Virus record (IMG/VR): IMGVR_UViG_3300047160_020067
Coordinates: 27,848-91,847 of that record
DNA: 64,000 bases
From: a virus
Reading direction: 5' to 3' (one strand)
Below the pieces are notes generated by a model. The model saw only the letters and a program-made list of their open reading frames with translations. It did no database searches and was not told where the DNA came from. The first letter of the stretch is position 1, and the number at the start of each line of letters is the position of its first letter. This document shows positions 1 through 63,550 of the stretch, piece by piece. Both the position numbers and the translations under genes were made by a program.

Positions 1-1032
1 TGCCATTTCTTTCCACCGGCGCACCTGGCGAAATGTATGTATATCCGAATCGATTGAAATAAAAGTGATCTGTGCCCCGACTGCCGTGATCACACCTTGA
101 CCTTCGCGCAGGGCCATTTCCATTTCGCCAGAGCCCATTGAACCGGATGTGTCGATCACGAAAGCAACTTTAGGAATTGGAGAACGCATAACCGGAAGAA
201 TCGGACGACCGGTACCGTAACCTAGAGCTCCTTGGCGTCGCGTAGGACGATCATAACGGTAATCGACAGCACCTGGTCGATAGGCGATAGCCGCACGGCA
301 TTCACGAGCTAGTTCATCTTGCCAACGTACCTTGGCCGGTTGGAGATATTCGCCAGCCCACCGCAACCATCCTCCTGGGACGGTACCACGGCTTTTTTGT
401 GCCTCATCGCGAATTGCCTCAGCGGTTTCGTGCCGCACCCGCTTAATTTCCGCCTCACTACGCCCTTCTTTCGCTTCAGCGGAACCATCTTTTGGTTCAC
501 CGTTAACAGGATTACCGCCAGCAGAGCCGCATTTACCGGCTCCAAGGCGTCCTCCCACTTGATTCTTTTTCAATGCGTTGGGGAGATGTTGATAATACTC
601 TTCTGCGGTCAAACCATCTTTACAACCAAAACATGCGGGAAGAAGGACATATTTATTGTCTGGATTTTTTTCGTCACCGGGTTTGTACCAAGCAAATGGA
701 AGTTCCCAACCCCCCTCTTTGAGGTCGTCATTAATTTCGGCATCTGTCGCCATGTTCCATCCTAGATTGTCCGTGGGCGCGAATTTTTTACCGCGCGTTG
801 TATGATCCCGAAGCAGATGTCCAACTTCGTGAATTAAAGCCCCAGCAATCTGTGTCACGGTCCACTGTCCAAGTACTTCTGGGTCCCAAAGTAGTACGCC
901 ATGTTCAGTAACAGCAATTGTTCCTAACCCATCAACCGTGCGAGGCATTAAAGAAAAAAGCGCTGCTCTGAAATACGGCGCTTTTTCTTTCGCCATTAAC
1001 CGACCAGCAGCAAGTTTTTCTCTCGGCGTCAT
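1..1032 (-). CDS. DUF2201-like metallopeptidase plus VWA domain protein (3' end beyond window edge)
   Basis: Manual translation from ATG at 1032 (ATGA overlap with the AAA gene stop): MTPREKLAAGRL...ALIHEVGHLLRDH (HExxH)...VAFVIDTSGSM (MIDAS DxSxS). Not in the ORF track, apparently because the frame runs off the window edge. Confidence 0.85.
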   Translation of the reverse strand, partial: MTPREKLAAGRLMAKEKAPYFRAALFSLMPRTVDGLGTIAVTEHGVLLWDPEVLGQWTVTQIAGALIHEVGHLLRDHTTRGKKFAPTDNLGWNMATDAEINDDLKEGGWELPFAWYKPGDEKNPDNKYVLLPACFGCKDGLTAEEYYQHLPNALKKNQVGGRLGAGKCGSAGGNPVNGEPKDGSAEAKEGRSEAEIKRVRHETAEAIRDEAQKSRGTVPGGWLRWAGEYLQPAKVRWQDELARECRAAIAYRPGAVDYRYDRPTRRQGALGYGTGRPILPVMRSPIPKVAFVIDTSGSMGSGEMEMALREGQGVITAVGAQITFISIDSDIHTFRQVRRWKEMA

Positions 1033-2177
1033 TGCGGTACAACTCCTGCCGCTGCGAGTATCGGATTGAGTTTCATGAGTACATTTCGTGCTTCAGGCAT
1101 AGTGGCTAAACGTGACTTAACTAACGTACGCGCTGCAGGAACAATCACATCAGCGGCATCGCTGGCAACGTCATCTAGTAAGGTCCAAAGTTTTATGGCG
1201 CGAGGATTGCGTTTCTCGGCATTGCTCGGGGCAACAAGCGCAGCACAAGCCGAAAATATCGCAAGGGTCCGGTCAAGGCGCTTTTCTTCGTGGCGAAACT
1301 TAACCTTACCGTCTAGTAGCTCACCGGGATCAGGGAGATCTGTTTTTTCGCGCCAGCCGAAAAATTCTGAGGCTGTGCCAGCCCCCACAAACGCGCTTAC
1401 GAATTCCTCCTCCTCGACTTGTGACAATTCGTGTACGCTGGCGGATGCAAGCGCACGGGTTGCCATTTCCCAAGTACGTGGACTGGGCCATGCGCGCGAT
1501 GCTTCGGGATTGCCAAGTTTTGGCATTGCATGCAGATGGCTTGGACGACGGCGAATATAACTGGTTACGAGACCCTTGGCGATAGCGTGTGGATTATTCC
1601 AACATTTTAGAACACGCTCTTCTTCGTCGCCAGCATCAAATTTGCTGTCTCCATTACTGCCCCCAGTCAGCAGCCAGTCGCTCCAGGAATCAACATCGGG
1701 GTTCTCCCATCGAATATGACCAAAACGATTTGCCAAAGGGGGGGCAAGGTCCCAACCACCAGCAGCCTCATATGTGGCATTCTGAGCGGCAATAAAACGA
1801 ATACCAGATGGTAGCACAAGGTCACCGACAGCCCCGTCAAGTACGACGCGAAGCGTAGCGGCTTGGACTGCTGGAGGGGCGGTGTTCAACTCGTCCAAGA
1901 ATGCGACGCCGCGCTTGGCTTTACGCAAGCGGTCAGCCCAGCTTGGCGCAGCATAACGCATCGTACCATCCTCGTTTGGGATTGGTAGCCCGAGGAAGTC
2001 TGCCGGCTCGCGAAGGCTAGCAATAACCACTTCGATCGAAAGGCCATGATCCTGCGCGAGTTGATAAACCCGCGAGGTTTTTGCAGTACCTGGCTTCCCT
2101 TCGAGAAGAAGTGGTAATCCCCACCGACCATTCAAGCCGGGTGTGAAGATTGCTGCTTTGAGGATCTTATCATGCAT
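1029..2177 (-). CDS. MoxR-like AAA+ ATPase
   Basis: Walker A GKPGTAKT, Walker B AFLDELN, LANRF arginine finger, PSPRTWE motif; adjacent to a VWA partner. Confidence 0.85.
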   Translation of the reverse strand: MHDKILKAAIFTPGLNGRWGLPLLLEGKPGTAKTSRVYQLAQDHGLSIEVVIASLREPADFLGLPIPNEDGTMRYAAPSWADRLRKAKRGVAFLDELNTAPPAVQAATLRVVLDGAVGDLVLPSGIRFIAAQNATYEAAGGWDLAPPLANRFGHIRWENPDVDSWSDWLLTGGSNGDSKFDAGDEEERVLKCWNNPHAIAKGLVTSYIRRRPSHLHAMPKLGNPEASRAWPSPRTWEMATRALASASVHELSQVEEEEFVSAFVGAGTASEFFGWREKTDLPDPGELLDGKVKFRHEEKRLDRTLAIFSACAALVAPSNAEKRNPRAIKLWTLLDDVASDAADVIVPAARTLVKSRLATMPEARNVLMKLNPILAAAGVVPQ

Positions 2178-2195
2178 TACCGTTGCTCCATTCTG

Positions 2196-2948
2196 TTAGA
2201 GTTTCGCGCACGGTCCATGGTTTTCGTGATCATCTTGGCTCGCGCCTCTTGCATGGTTTTCGTTGTCGATGTGGTTCGCGTTCTCGGTCTGGTTTTCGCG
2301 TTTCCCACGGCAAAAGTCTTTGAAAAATGGTGTCCATTGTGCAGCGCCGCGTGACGCTAATACAACGCCAAGCATAGGTACCCCGCCCATATAGCGGTAC
2401 ACTCGAATGATTTCTTTGGTAAAGTCAGTTGCCTCTTGGATTGCCACGACTCGCCCAATGGACACCGTCTGGAAAAATGGTGCAAGCGCTTGCTTCAACC
2501 CGAAGGGGTAGTTGCGAGCGCGTGTCTCCAGCTCCTGAGCGTCGTCTGCGTTGCGCCCATATGAGACGAAGACGGCAAGCACTCCGATCTTTGGCGCCAG
2601 CTTGCGCACGGTCCATAGTGTGTCTGATCCAACGACCTTGCAGAAGTCGAGATTGGCAAAGTCGAAGCGCTCACGTCCGAATGCGTCGGTAACGTTGCCA
2701 AGATAGACGCGCTCGGCGCCGGCTTCGGCCGCCGCGCCAAGGTTTGCTTGCGCGGTTGGTCCGATATCAGCCGCTGTGATTTGTGGGCGCTTCAGCGAAC
2801 GCCGGGCGCAGCTAATTTCCTCAGCGGGCTCGGGGCCAGCAAGCATGAGCACCTTCGGGTGCCGCTTAGTAATCAGCGTGCTGGCGTTGCGGTAGAGGTC
2901 TTCGCGGACCGCCCGCTTCGCCGCGGTGATTTTGGTAAAGGCGCTCAT
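2196..2948 (-). CDS. Putative class I SAM-dependent methyltransferase; C-terminus encoded by TIGR repeats
   Basis: Rossmann-like motif order KVLMLAGP / ITAADI / YLGNV / FDFANLDFC; last ~35 codons are array repeats. Confidence 0.55.
   Translation of the reverse strand: MSAFTKITAAKRAVREDLYRNASTLITKRHPKVLMLAGPEPAEEISCARRSLKRPQITAADIGPTAQANLGAAAEAGAERVYLGNVTDAFGRERFDFANLDFCKVVGSDTLWTVRKLAPKIGVLAVFVSYGRNADDAQELETRARNYPFGLKQALAPFFQTVSIGRVVAIQEATDFTKEIIRVYRYMGGVPMLGVVLASRGAAQWTPFFKDFCRGKRENQTENANHIDNENHARGASQDDHENHGPCAKL
2200..2316 (-). ncRNA. TIGR-type guide array, segment 2 (about 3 units, first edge repeat degenerate)
   Basis: Minus strand: (cttttgccg) tgggaaacg CGAAAACCA gaccgagaa CGCGAACCA catcgacaa CGAAAACCA tgcaagagg CGCGAGCCA agatgatca CGAAAACCA tggaccgtg CGCGAAACT. 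Confidence 0.85.
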
Positions 2949-3096
2949 AGCGCCGCCTCGTTGGTTTTCGCGGTGGTTGTGGCTCGCGCGACTGTGGTGG
3001 TTGGTGTAGCGGTTATGGCTTGCGTATCCCCGGTGGTTTTCGTCATTGTTATGGCTAGCGCCTCTTCGTTGGTTTTCGTCTTTCCCGTGGCTCGCA
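2949..3096 (-). ncRNA. TIGR-type guide array, segment 1 (4 x 36-nt units)
   Basis: Minus strand: TGCGAGCCA cgggaaaga CGAAAACCA acgaagagg CGCTAGCCA taacaatga CGAAAACCA ccggggata CGCAAGCCA taaccgcta CACCAACCA ccacagtcg CGCGAGCCA caaccaccg CGAAAACCA acgaggcgg CGCT; exact 9/9/9/9 periodicity directly downstream of the Nop-domain gene. Confidence 0.9.
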
Positions 3097-3107
3097 TCTT
3101 CATTTCC

Positions 3108-4073
3108 TTATGCCGCGTGCCTGTGACCGAGGTACTGCTCCTGGTACGACTCACGAATCGGAAGCCCTTCGAATGCCCGCCACTTCAGCCAGATGTCCAA
3201 TAAAACCATCTTGACCATGTAGCGAAGCGCCGCGTTGTGCCGATGCCCATCGGACTGACCCCATCCGGCGCTCGCCTTGCGGTTCTTGTAGTTGTCGTAG
3301 AGCCTGCGCCACTCTGTGCGAGTGTCTTCGCCTGTTTCCTCATTGATCTTGCCGCCTGCCTTGAGGAGGCAGGTCCCGAGTACGCCGATGAGTTTCGTGC
3401 GGAGGAAGGCGTTGTAATGTAGCGCTTCACCTGAGGTGGGACGCTCAGCGCGACCGCTATCTACGAGTACAGACGTTGGTGCGACACTGCCTGCATGTGG
3501 GCATTTGATCTTCGCCTGCTTCGTGACGAAGTTGCCCTCGTCATCCTTCGCTTTGACGGCGCGTGCCTTCGGGTGCTCACCGTCTTCCTCGACGACGGTC
3601 CAGCACACCGAGCACCGTTTGCACGGCATCGGCGCGAGCCCAGCAAACCGCCACATCTTGGACGGTGTGGTCTCTCGCGCTATGTCGAACTCGGAGAGTA
3701 TGACGGCGGCGGATGCCACACCCAAGCCTCTATACTTGTCTTTGATATGCTGATTGTAGAACGGAATGGTGTATAGATGCTTCTCCACATCCTCTAGGCA
3801 CGTTTTTTCTAGGTTGCTGAGACTGTCGAGACGACCGTTGAGTGTCGCTTTGTCCTCGGAGCGTAGTTCGATCGTTGTCGCACGCGCCTTCTTACCTCCG
3901 TCTAGTTTTTTGTCCGAACGCCCACTAATCTGCATTCGGAGGAGTTGCACGTCGTAGAACATGCGCGTCTTTGCCTTAAGGGCGAGGCGCGATGGTGAGA
4001 TCGCGTGTTTATCTTGGCTGTGGCTCGCGTTGCTGGGCTGGTTTTCGCTGTTGGTTTGACTGTTCTTGGACAT
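3108..4073 (-). CDS. tasA: TasA-like Nop-domain RNA-guided protein (IS110/Nop56-related) with Cys/His insertion
   Basis: Coiled-coil N-terminus, GLGVASAAVILSEFDIAR..SKMWRFAGL, YNAFLRTKL, GHRHNAALRYMVKMVLLDIW, EGLP..Y.EQYLG; no N-terminal DEDD RuvC; flanked by a dual-repeat 36-nt array. Confidence 0.8.
   Translation of the reverse strand: MSKNSQTNSENQPSNASHSQDKHAISPSRLALKAKTRMFYDVQLLRMQISGRSDKKLDGGKKARATTIELRSEDKATLNGRLDSLSNLEKTCLEDVEKHLYTIPFYNQHIKDKYRGLGVASAAVILSEFDIARETTPSKMWRFAGLAPMPCKRCSVCWTVVEEDGEHPKARAVKAKDDEGNFVTKQAKIKCPHAGSVAPTSVLVDSGRAERPTSGEALHYNAFLRTKLIGVLGTCLLKAGGKINEETGEDTRTEWRRLYDNYKNRKASAGWGQSDGHRHNAALRYMVKMVLLDIWLKWRAFEGLPIRESYQEQYLGHRHAA
4021..4065 (-). repeat. Single TIGR-like unit inside the 5' end of tasA
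   Basis: gaacagtca aaccaacag CGAAAACCA gcccagcaa CGCGAGCCA, same repeats and spacing as the downstream arrays; encodes ENQ..ASH. Confidence 0.65.
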
Positions 4074-4102
4074 TGTTATGATTTCCTTTGCCTTTTTGTT
4101 GG

Positions 4103-4447
4103 TTATGACCCCACCATGACACCGCGGCAGCAGCGTTGTGGAACTTCAATAAAATTCGGACCATTTTGGAGCGTCAACATTTGTTCACCGTCATCCCGGA
4201 TACGAATCGAAACCGCCTCCCACAGACCCGAAATGGCGCGGCCATTCGAATCGAAGCAGTTCTCAACACAGACCATTGCAATAGGTTGCGTATTGCGACG
4301 CTTACGCGTTTTGGGGGTTACTGGCTTGGTCGGTGCGGCTAGCGTAGAATGAATTGCGCGATTAGATACGGGTGTAGGTTCAGAAACCGGCAATGGAACC
4401 TTACGAATTACACCAAGAGGTAGCGTCGTCGTGGTTCGGCGCGTCAT
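4103..4447 (-). CDS. Hypothetical protein
   Basis: Coupled (ATGA) to upstream ORF; same apparent operon as tasA. Confidence 0.55.
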   Translation of the reverse strand: MTRRTTTTLPLGVIRKVPLPVSEPTPVSNRAIHSTLAAPTKPVTPKTRKRRNTQPIAMVCVENCFDSNGRAISGLWEAVSIRIRDDGEQMLTLQNGPNFIEVPQRCCRGVMVGS

Positions 4448-62862: not shown

Positions 62863-63550
62863 ACTTTCATACCCATGCACATTAAGTGCCAACACGCAGA
62901 CTCAATAAGATACGCTGTTTAGTTGCAATGAAAGTTCAGACTTGTTGCAAAGCTTGCCACTGCGTGGCGTAAGTGATTGAACGCAGAGTGCCTAACTTGC
63001 CACGGTGGTGGGGTTATTTTGCTACATTCAGGCGCCGATTCCTTTTTAGCCATTACGTTTCTTCCAACTTGGCGAGAGCTGTATACTTCATGCGCTTAAT
63101 CTCCATTCAGAATCATGTGCTGCGACCAAATCCACAGTGATGAATTTCCTAACAATATTGGCGCATTCGTTGAGGATTCTGACGGCGGCATAGGCGGCGG
63201 CATCGGCGGCATAGGTGGCGGCATCGGCGGCATTGACGGCGGCATAGGCGGCGGCATCGGCGGCATAGGTGGCGGCATCGGCGGCATAGGCGGCGGCATT
63301 GACGGCATTGGCGGCGGCATAGGCGGCATAAGCGGCTCTGGCGGCACAAGCGGCTCTGGCGGCACAAGCGGCGTCGGCGGCGTTGATGGCGGCTTCCTCT
63401 ACCTGTTCTAGAGTAGCCTCGTTGCGGCACCACGCCTCTGCGGCCTCAATGGTCTTTAAGGGGCGGCTTTCGCCTTTGGGGACGTGCGGCAGAGCTAGCC
63501 GTGCACAGGCTGCCGCGGCTTGGACCACGAGGCGGCGGTCTATTCCTATT
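62581..63550. repeat. Direct repeat 62581-62743 / 63388-63550
   Basis: 163 nt with 4 mismatches, offset 807 nt. Confidence 0.9.

Follow-up and report, generated by a model that had tools for sequence, protein, structure and literature searches.

The soil phage studied here carries a dual-repeat TIGR-TasA system. In the window, the 64-kb stretch of its 91.8-kb genome that was analysed, tasA, a second gene (ORF250) and 36-nt dual-repeat units lie on the minus strand as one operon-like block. The product of ORF250 can be confidently predicted to fold as a class I SAM-methyltransferase, and we regard it as roughly an even chance (probability approx. 0.5) that this gene is a dedicated accessory of the phage TIGR-TasA operon, most likely acting in trans. 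The features of the locus are as follows:

2196..2948, minus strand: whole ORF250, 250 aa, in the same frame as tasA (ORF call)
2200..2316, minus strand: three-unit TIGR array forming the 3' end of ORF250 (sequence; closes with the truncated edge CGCGA)
2313..2948, minus strand: predicted class I SAM-methyltransferase-fold domain, ORF250 residues 1-212 (AF2, Foldseek, VIA, conservation)
2944..3096, minus strand: four-unit TIGR array in the tasA-ORF250 gap (sequence, repeat count, 36-nt periodicity score 0.64-0.69)
2956..2959, minus strand: GAGG Shine-Dalgarno-like motif for ORF250, in spacer B of the last unit (sequence)
3108..4073, minus strand: tasA, 321 aa, nuclease-free, with a coiled coil and a Nop-type C-terminal domain (phmmer, AF2, VIA, NCBIfam, Pfam)
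3450..3629, minus strand: Zn-ribbon-like insertion in the Nop domain, CxxC...H...C, residues about 149-208 (conservation, model)
4021..4065, minus strand: single TIGR unit, tasA codons 3-18 (sequence, loop repeat match)

Guide arrays

Along the minus strand, the order is one unit within the 5' end of tasA, tasA itself, four units, ORF250, and three units, giving eight TIGR units in three blocks in the 64-kb window. The loop repeat CGAAAACCA (TGGTTTTCG on the plus strand) occurs seven times in the window against 0.69 expected; all seven copies lie inside the three blocks at a spacing of 36 nt, and none was found elsewhere in the 91.8-kb phage genome. In the array between the genes, the unit edge-spacerA-loop-spacerB is repeated four times, with the edges TGCGAGCCA, CGCTAGCCA, CGCAAGCCA and CGCGAGCCA and one degenerate loop, CACCAACCA. 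This array ends in a 3'-truncated edge, CGCT followed by ATG, which overlaps the ORF250 start codon, and the GAGG motif lies 7 nt 5' of that ATG. The array at 2200..2316, which likewise ends in a 3'-truncated edge, encodes ORF250 residues ~212-249. Four units between the genes, a start codon placed in an edge repeat and an array that resumes for about three units at the 3' end of ORF250 had all been described in an earlier note on this DNA, and each was recovered at these positions. The unit within tasA was absent from that note; it consists of a degenerate edge (GAACAGTCA), spacer A, the loop CGAAAACCA, spacer B and the edge CGCGAGCCA.

A soil-metagenome contig covers positions 2768-3029 with a sequence identical to the window. 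The sequencing runs that contain the stretch are soil metagenomes (DNA) of low depth, and no RNA runs were among those listed. No terminator-like site follows any of the arrays on the minus strand, and an Rfam scan of 1900-4400 returned no family. Further arrays elsewhere in the phage genome were rejected as candidates, since the 36-nt periodic signals proved to be GGCGGC-rich 9-nt repeats.

The TasA protein

The tasA product is a Tas protein of the TasA type, without RuvC or HNH. In phmmer searches, it matches the solved TasR (9mty) and TasH (21kl) with E values of 1.5e-6 and 2.1e-5, respectively, and its AF2 model (pLDDT 88) superposes in VIA on residues 108-302 of TasR 9mty (Z 20.8, rmsd 1.7 A, 194 residues aligned) and on TasH from residue 47 or 65 to 300 (Z about 20). 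Because the alignments start at TasR residue 108 and TasH residues 47-65, TasA has no counterpart of the nuclease parts of these proteins. The match to NCBIfam NF052498 reaches 92 bits, under the cut-off of 100; among 36 members of the TasA family, 26 match PF02371 and none matches an HNH or DEDD Pfam family. The earlier reading of the locus as a dual-repeat TIGR system with a nuclease-free Tas protein, and of 3108..4073 as a Nop-type fold, thus holds. Residues 1-20 are disordered in the AF2 model, and there is no alternative start codon ahead of the conserved residues 21-37.

The Nop domain carries a Zn-ribbon-like insertion, a segment that is beta-rich in the AF2 model and in which all 36 homologues keep C154, C157 and C191, and almost all keep H167. 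That it might be a hidden HNH nuclease was rejected, as it is CCHC-like and too short and no member of the family has an HNH Pfam match. The genes flanking the locus (a MoxR-like ATPase, its neighbour and ThyX) are not common to other tasA loci, and the nearest tasA relatives, L001-L005, have no neighbour in common.

The ORF250 protein

The AF2 model of ORF250 (pLDDT 87.6, pTM 0.82) is a seven-stranded Rossmann-like sheet, with the strand order and the strand 6-7 hairpin of class I enzymes. Among the Foldseek matches listed, of at least 500 at E <= 0.001, nearly all are methyltransferases. In the wide VIA comparison, residues 1-202 align over 150-186 residues with Z 12-14 and rmsd 2.6-3.4 A; the best neighbours include the RNA methyltransferases RlmI/RlmO, Trm1, TrmN/Trm14, TlyA and RsmD-like enzymes, which stand no higher in the list than other methyltransferases (Z 12-14 throughout). 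Family conservation points the same way: G38 after strand 1, D61 at the end of strand 2 and D101 at the end of strand 4 are invariant. After strand 3, the family consensus is GD and the window protein has GN. The predicted fold, with equivalents of motifs I, II and III conserved, is that of a class I SAM-methyltransferase, so the SAM-binding type of fold expected by the earlier note is well supported by the model.

With regard to a catalytic motif IV that might point to a substrate class (DPPY, PCQ, K-D-K-E and the like), D101 lies in the motif N-L-D-[LF]-[C/Y/T/F], which has no prolines; where most of the family has C103, three members have Y, T or F. No basic residue after strand 5 is conserved in the family, and neither is a K-D-K-E tetrad. 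Six of 36 family members match Methyltransf_11/25 weakly. Searches with ORF250 of Pfam, PHROGs, NCBIfam, PADLOC and PDB sequences gave no match, nor did tblastn of ORF250 and its homologue P0162 against GenBank phages. The profile of family alignment A2 shows only generic Rossmann beta2-alphaB similarity to alcohol dehydrogenases in the PDB. The last 33 residues (218-250), which are array-encoded, are disordered (pLDDT <50) and are aligned by none of 53 remote homologues, and the window protein lacks a C-terminal domain that is present in most of the family.

Link between ORF250 relatives and TIGR arrays

The homologue set comprises 53 remote cluster representatives from other assemblies, ten of which contain 12-aa periodic inserts of the form ETT/ETP-xxx-ER[AV]-xxx. 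ERA is the translation of the edge consensus GAGCGAGCCA in the E-R-A frame, and ETP is that of the L035-type loop GAGACACCCA, found in tasA-adjacent arrays; a loop translating as ETT occurs in no surveyed array. Together, the inserts amount to about 130 TIGR-type units, in frame and with zero stops, the arrays in these ten homologues being inferred from protein periodicity. For comparison, 22 intergenic arrays read in the E-R-A frame average 0.0375 stops per codon, and every one of them is interrupted. At the level of these protein sequences, the clade of this phage protein family to which ORF250 belongs is shown to keep TIGR arrays translatable inside the gene. The ten array-bearing homologues form one clade (SH-like support 0.77), which groups with the window protein and P0139 with a support of 0.95.

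Pairs of an ORF250 homologue and a TasA homologue were also found on contigs of identical size, 3630 nt (ENA) and 7482 nt (Logan). A third equal-size pairing, at 1735 nt, cannot physically exist, so that coincidences of this kind evidently do arise by chance.

The family link has to be weighed against the possibility, which we consider rather unlikely, that ORF250 is passive cargo, i.e., an ordinary phage orphan methyltransferase (serving, for example, anti-restriction DNA protection) that merely adjoins tasA and into which arrays have spread. Arrays would grow or duplicate at their ends, and only in-frame, stop-free inserts in surface loops would survive, leaving the enzyme its unrelated job. 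The insert sites agree with this, as they fall in the loops between strands 3-4 and 5-6 and at the C-terminal end, and 43 of the 53 representatives have no array in the ORF. Moreover, because the array-linked members all belong to one clade, the linkage may date from a single event and have persisted through inherited synteny. However, it is kept down to 30-38% identity, and the arrays stand at several different positions in the gene, so that repeated invasion of one particular gene would be needed. The loss of the family C-terminal domain from the window copy also speaks against mere carriage.

A survey of other loci bears on both readings. At TIGR-TasA loci of IMG/VR, TasA and/or TasParB occupy 42 of 49 inter-array gaps, and ORF250 is placed between arrays as TasParB is in related loci, which favours a component of the system; an unrelated gene can nevertheless occur there, as does a cytidylyltransferase in locus L015. 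The occurrence of the same methyltransferase family at other tasA loci, to which the earlier note had looked, was not borne out. The family was looked for in three sets: 50 whole viral records that bear tasA (with a positive control run), 55 tasA loci taken with flanks of 5 kb, and 84 stretches surrounding arrays of this repeat type, TasA being encoded in 66 of the stretches. No member was found in any set, as would be expected of cargo. Searches for related loci from ORF250-family queries also found none. Degenerate DNA patterns designed on FDFxNLD[LF]C and RVYxYRGN hit viral, metagenome and genome collections at chance level only, the strongest match being a single weak one (L130, E 3.8e-4). 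The proposed partnership of ORF250 with Tas gains from the inter-array position and the family link to arrays and loses from this absence. Taken by sequence, the methyltransferase gene and the arrays look linked, and the inter-array position together with the family-level link argues that the gene is part of the system and not random cargo.

Comparison with known systems

The closest counterparts are dual-repeat TIGR-TasA/TasParB operons, in which arrays precede, separate and follow tasParB and tasA (Faure et al. 2025). TasParB is the only accessory reported in the TIGR-Tas literature searched, and no natural TIGR-methyltransferase pair was found there; the earlier note had not considered TasParB. 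In the loci surveyed here, 225-aa neighbours with a ParB/Srx N-terminal domain and a DGxHR box occur in 26 of 55. The window locus shares with such operons a nuclease-free Tas protein, 36-nt edge/loop units, spacers of about 9 nt, a phage host, and mini-arrays that flank and separate two co-oriented genes; its edge and loop repeats have the same cores, GCGAGCCA and GAAAACCA, as those of tasA/TasParB loci in IMG/VR. It differs in that its second gene is predicted to encode a class I methyltransferase fold with no ParB/Srx (hhalign probability of the ORF250 family against the family of the 225-aa neighbours, 0.4%), in the guide unit inside tasA and the array serving as the 3' end of the partner ORF, and in showing no terminator-like site after its arrays.

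Guided by RNA, MbTasA and catalytically dead TasR repress transcription (Xu et al. 2026, bioRxiv 10.64898/2026.09.09.750476), and nuclease-free guided DNA binding is the activity that would, by analogy, be expected of the window TasA. In contrast, those proteins act alone and are described with no accessory enzyme (the terms methyl, ParB and accessory are absent from the text of Xu et al. 2026). Moreover, MbTasA is presented together with TasR systems of CPR bacteria that have stem-loop arrays; the window locus is of the dual-repeat type.

A more distant parallel is the box C/D snoRNP (Nop5/Nop56/58, fibrillarin, L7Ae), in which a Nop protein forms dimers by way of a coiled coil and binds a bipartite guide RNA, with a class I methyltransferase acting as effector; here, a class I methyltransferase fold is predicted beside tasA and an effector role is proposed for it. 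The fibrillarin analogy drawn earlier appears to fail in its details. TasA matches Nop5 weakly in VIA (Z about 7), and no domain precedes its coiled coil where Nop5 has the N-terminal domain that holds fibrillarin. ORF250 is not a recognisable fibrillarin, and a K-D-K-E tetrad is not conserved in its family. Fibrillarin does not appear among its best 50 VIA matches, although it may stand lower in the list. Furthermore, the published target of Tas is DNA, not RNA.

Other roles for the methyltransferase

A second alternative, which appears improbable, is that ORF250 modifies guide RNA, methylating tigRNAs or their precursor (on base or ribose) in cis on its own transcript and thereby stabilising or maturing them. 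Arrays do lie on the transcript or within the ORF of the enzyme in eleven cases, and many RNA methyltransferases are among its top structural neighbours. However, these enzymes rank no higher than other methyltransferases, and in E. coli the published TasA, TasR and TasH give functional tigRNAs with no enzyme of this kind at hand. Nor did the search of TIGR loci turn up the family. A fusion formed by occasional read-through of the tasA stop codon, in which a linker would tether the methyltransferase to TasA and the guide complex, is most improbable. In its favour, tasA, the four-unit array and ORF250 lie in a single frame whose one interruption is the tasA TAA, and the 53 codons from this TAA to the ORF250 ATG are open (open frame 303 aa), which intergenic arrays in the A-S-Q frame, averaging 0.068 stops per codon, would give by chance in ~2% of cases. 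Against it, no bacterial stop codon is more efficient than TAA, ORF250 starts from an ATG and GAGG motif of its own, no TasA-methyltransferase fusion occurs among 238 relatives of at most 830 aa, and the array can also be read without stops in other frames and on the opposite strand.

Possible mechanism and significance

If ORF250 is, as we favour, a dedicated TIGR-TasA accessory, the locus might work as follows. By analogy with published relatives, the transcript would be cut into 36-nt tigRNAs, and a TasA dimer with one tigRNA would bind 18 bp of DNA, the two spacers pairing with opposite strands; such a complex would not cut but could repress transcription. The predicted methyltransferase would act in trans on the nucleic acid held open by TasA-tigRNA, leading to methylation at guide-chosen sites. 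That the locus directs methylation in this way is a tentative proposal that we hold to be unlikely as it stands. Equally doubtful is its fuller form, in which the two 9-nt spacers choose the 18-bp site that TasA-tigRNA opens, the methyltransferase methylates the exposed bases, marking or silencing host or rival DNA without cutting, and the arrays are kept translatable so that the RNA serves as either message or guide precursor. Because the arrays share a transcript or ORF with the methyltransferase, more guide processing may mean less enzyme synthesis, and vice versa. Self-regulation of phage genes by the spacers was rejected, since the best matches in the phage's own genome leave 3-4 of 18 positions mismatched and shuffled spacers do equally well; as spacer targets are absent from the phage itself, the host or rival mobile elements are likely targets.

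TasA has a known binding activity, and no enzymatic effector would have been proposed for it before an array-borne methyltransferase such as this one, if it does travel with the arrays. If guide-directed, it would offer a compact natural template for programmable DNA methylation with no PAM needed. Arrays that run in frame and free of stops inside a protein gene represent an unusual form of dual coding, and they bear on the origin, spread and regulation of TIGR arrays, a question that is open according to Faure et al. (2025).

The locus and its guide arrays

Both genes and every repeat lie on the minus strand, and three array blocks with distinct 9-nt spacers confirm the dual-repeat arrays that the earlier note had placed after the Tas gene; its description is slightly extended by an additional unit inside tasA codons 3-18. 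Edge repeats read CGCNAGCCA. Seven copies of the loop repeat, CGAAAACCA, are present in the 64-kb window, where 0.69 would be expected; all fall within the three blocks at 36-nt spacing, and the 91.8-kb genome of the phage contains no further copy.

Features of the locus, with repeat blocks of another kind (window coordinates unless stated)
4073, minus: tasA start (ATG), AGGAA motif upstream
4065-4021, minus: one guide unit, inside tasA codons 3-18
3110-3108, minus: tasA stop (TAA)
3096-2944, minus: four-unit array, whose final truncated edge repeat CGCT merges into the ORF250 ATG at 2948
2948 to the array at 2316, minus: body of ORF250, the methyltransferase-fold gene
2316-2200, minus: three-unit array, coding for ~39 C-terminal residues of ORF250; stop at 2196
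2177, minus: start of a MoxR-like AAA ATPase gene, the next gene after ORF250
63274-63381, and phage genome 15960-16100 and 23980-24230 (upstream of the window): three GGCGGC-rich repeat blocks

The likely ribosome-binding site of ORF250 is GAGG within spacer B (ACGAGGCGG) of the last middle-array unit (window 2953-2961). Directly downstream of the last array (window 1-2177, minus strand), the MoxR-like AAA ATPase (PHROG 1297) and a protein with an HEVGH motif are encoded; no terminator was found between this array and the ATPase gene, and neither protein is common to other tasA loci. The GGCGGC-rich repeats (GGCGGCATN-like, period ~9 nt) are not TIGR arrays despite their false 36-nt periodic signal.

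A nuclease-free Tas protein

The Tas protein of the window matches the solved chains TasR (9mty) and TasH (21kl) by sequence, has more than 100 homologues, and scores 92 bits against NCBIfam NF052498 ('TIGR-Tas system RNA-guided endonuclease'), below the model cut-off of 100. PF02371, the IS110 C-terminal family, is matched by 26 of the 36 aligned homologues, and no member of this set matches an HNH or DEDD nuclease family. Structural alignment of its AF2 model (pLDDT 88) starts at residue 108 of TasR (Z 20.8) and at residue 47-65 of TasH (Z about 20); the model also resembles IS621 recombinase (Z about 15.5) and, weakly, Nop5 (Z about 7). These starting points lie beyond the nuclease parts of both chains, which have no structural counterpart in the model; the protein is therefore TasA, and its earlier description as a nuclease-less Nop-type Tas protein is borne out. 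A zinc-ribbon-like CxxC...H...C insertion in the Nop domain (window 3450-3629, residues about 149-208), conserved in 36/36 aligned homologues, marks out a TasA subfamily. The TIGR-TasA core here is an ordinary member of the family described in 2025.

Among GenBank phages, the sole match to this TasA is in Ralstonia phage phiRSL1 (AB366653.2 / NC_010811.2, 13339-14184; 26% identity over 97% of the query). The former record labels the gene product a hypothetical protein and the latter a transposase; it is possibly an unrecognised TasA. For the 749-aa TasA homologue P0227, precomputed Pfam annotation lists Hint, intein-splicing and LAGLIDADG domains, pointing to a possible intein within its tasA gene.

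A methyltransferase fold between the arrays

ORF250 matched no recognised family in sequence libraries, and a word-indexed search returned the self-match alone; an exhaustive HMMER search recovered 53 remote homologues, with alignment confined to residues 5-211. The model built with the homologue alignment (pLDDT 87.6, pTM 0.82) has the strand order of a class I SAM-methyltransferase, with the array-encoded residues 218-250 disordered, and the ESM Atlas model agrees with this fold. Nearly all of the Foldseek matches listed against the PDB are methyltransferases, and an independent all-against-all structural search gave Z 12-14 to many methyltransferases. The conserved positions fit a role in cofactor binding: G38 follows strand 1 and G-D/N follows strand 3, and D61 and the invariant D101 close strands 2 and 4, respectively. 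The Cys after D101 is substituted in three homologues, and a K-D-K-E tetrad is not conserved in the family. Given the model, structural matches and conserved positions, the earlier class I SAM-methyltransferase call is right as regards the fold, and catalysis by this predicted methyltransferase is plausible.

TIGR arrays have been described upstream of, between and downstream of tasParB, which encodes a ParB-like partner, and tasA (Faure et al. 2025). This arrangement was recovered in IMG/VR tasA loci, 26/55 of which encode a co-oriented ~225-aa protein that carries the DGxHR box of ParB. When these 55 loci were surveyed together with 84 stretches found via array sequence, TasA and/or TasParB occupied 42/49 gaps between arrays and other content the remaining seven (four or five once duplicates were removed); thus, an inter-array gene is usually a system component. 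ORF250 sits between arrays, as TasA and TasParB do, but is unrelated to ParB. A methyltransferase-fold gene in TasParB's place does not appear in the TIGR-Tas literature searched. One of the few other inter-array genes that are neither TasA nor ParB is a cytidylyltransferase-family gene between two TIGR arrays on an IMG/VR phage contig (L015:5945-6703, same contig as L291).

Arrays inside reading frames

In 10/53 representatives of the ORF250 homologues (~30-40% identical to ORF250), long inserts repeat strictly every 12 residues, with conserved and variable triplets alternating: ETT or ETP, then xxx, then ERA or ERV, then xxx. The array consensus beside IMG/VR tasA genes is edge GAGCGAGCCA and loop GAGAAAACCA or GAGACACCCA; in one frame, edge GAGCGAGCCA translates to E-R-A and loop GAGACACCCA to E-T-P, and no loop among the surveyed arrays reads ETT. 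The second block of homologue P0131 reads RASQ/DNH, by inspection compatible with the same repeat cores shifted one base. This period, together with the translation of tasA-adjacent repeats, identifies the inserts as predicted translated TIGR arrays. Within the methyltransferase fold they occupy the loop that joins strands 5 and 6 and, in P0133, additionally the one that joins strands 3 and 4; in some homologues they follow the C-terminus.

The in-ORF arrays (~130 units, roughly 1,600 codons) contain zero stops, whereas all 22 intergenic arrays compared are interrupted in that frame, at 0.0375 stops per codon. Among the homologues there is no clear case of an N-terminal fragment ending inside an array, the detectable form of a broken version; the sole candidate is P0120, encoded on a contig of 1,175 nt, and its cluster mate P0162 is intact. 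On these counts, the arrays within methyltransferase ORFs appear to be maintained translatable. In a FastTree phylogeny the ten array-bearing members form one clade (support 0.77), which groups with window ORF250 and P0139 (support 0.95); a gene clade with guide arrays inside its own reading frames is likewise absent from the TIGR-Tas literature searched. Stop-free, array-encoded N- or C-terminal extensions of <=196 aa occur in TasA homologues of other assemblies (P0185, P0225, P0043 and P0041); translatable arrays are therefore not confined to the methyltransferase gene.

Possible roles of ORF250

The proposed partnership of ORF250 with the TIGR system draws support from its inter-array position and the array-bearing clade, and none from recurrence at other tasA loci. 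No member of the family turned up on 50 viral records with tasA that were searched in full (with a positive control), in 55 tasA loci with 5-kb flanks, or in 84 stretches around arrays of the same repeat type, 66 of them TasA-encoding. DNA scans of sequence collections for array-bearing homologues gave no match. Two homologues are on contigs equal in size and source to TasA-homologue contigs (3,630 nt, ENA; 7,482 nt, Logan); a third such pairing, at 1,735 nt, is too small for both genes, so the equal-size evidence is weak. These absences fit ORF250 being passive cargo that the arrays invaded, a doubtful reading; inherited synteny with selection on an unrelated enzyme is a live alternative because all array-linked members form one clade.

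The structural neighbours of ORF250 mix RNA, protein and small-molecule methyltransferases; therefore, no substrate class stands out. Methylation of the guides themselves is improbable. The 53 codons from the tasA stop to the ORF250 start are open in the frame of both genes, and further frames of this array are also open; a TasA-methyltransferase fusion made by read-through is very improbable.

In relatives, 36-nt tigRNAs are made from the arrays, a step that requires the Tas protein. Each of the two spacers pairs with a different strand of an 18-bp site, which is unwound and sharply bent. TasA of relatives binds DNA without cutting it and represses transcription (Xu et al. 2026, bioRxiv 10.64898/2026.09.09.750476). 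The eight spacer pairs have no target better than chance in the phage genome, so their targets lie elsewhere; the phage is present in soil metagenomes. The preferred reading, with a probability of about 0.5, is that the ORF250 methyltransferase would be a dedicated accessory of the TIGR-TasA system. Two roles make up this reading, each rather unlikely when taken singly: ORF250 might methylate the opened target at the guide-chosen site, or it might have an unspecified coupled role, which could include one RNA being used, mutually exclusively, as message or guide precursor.
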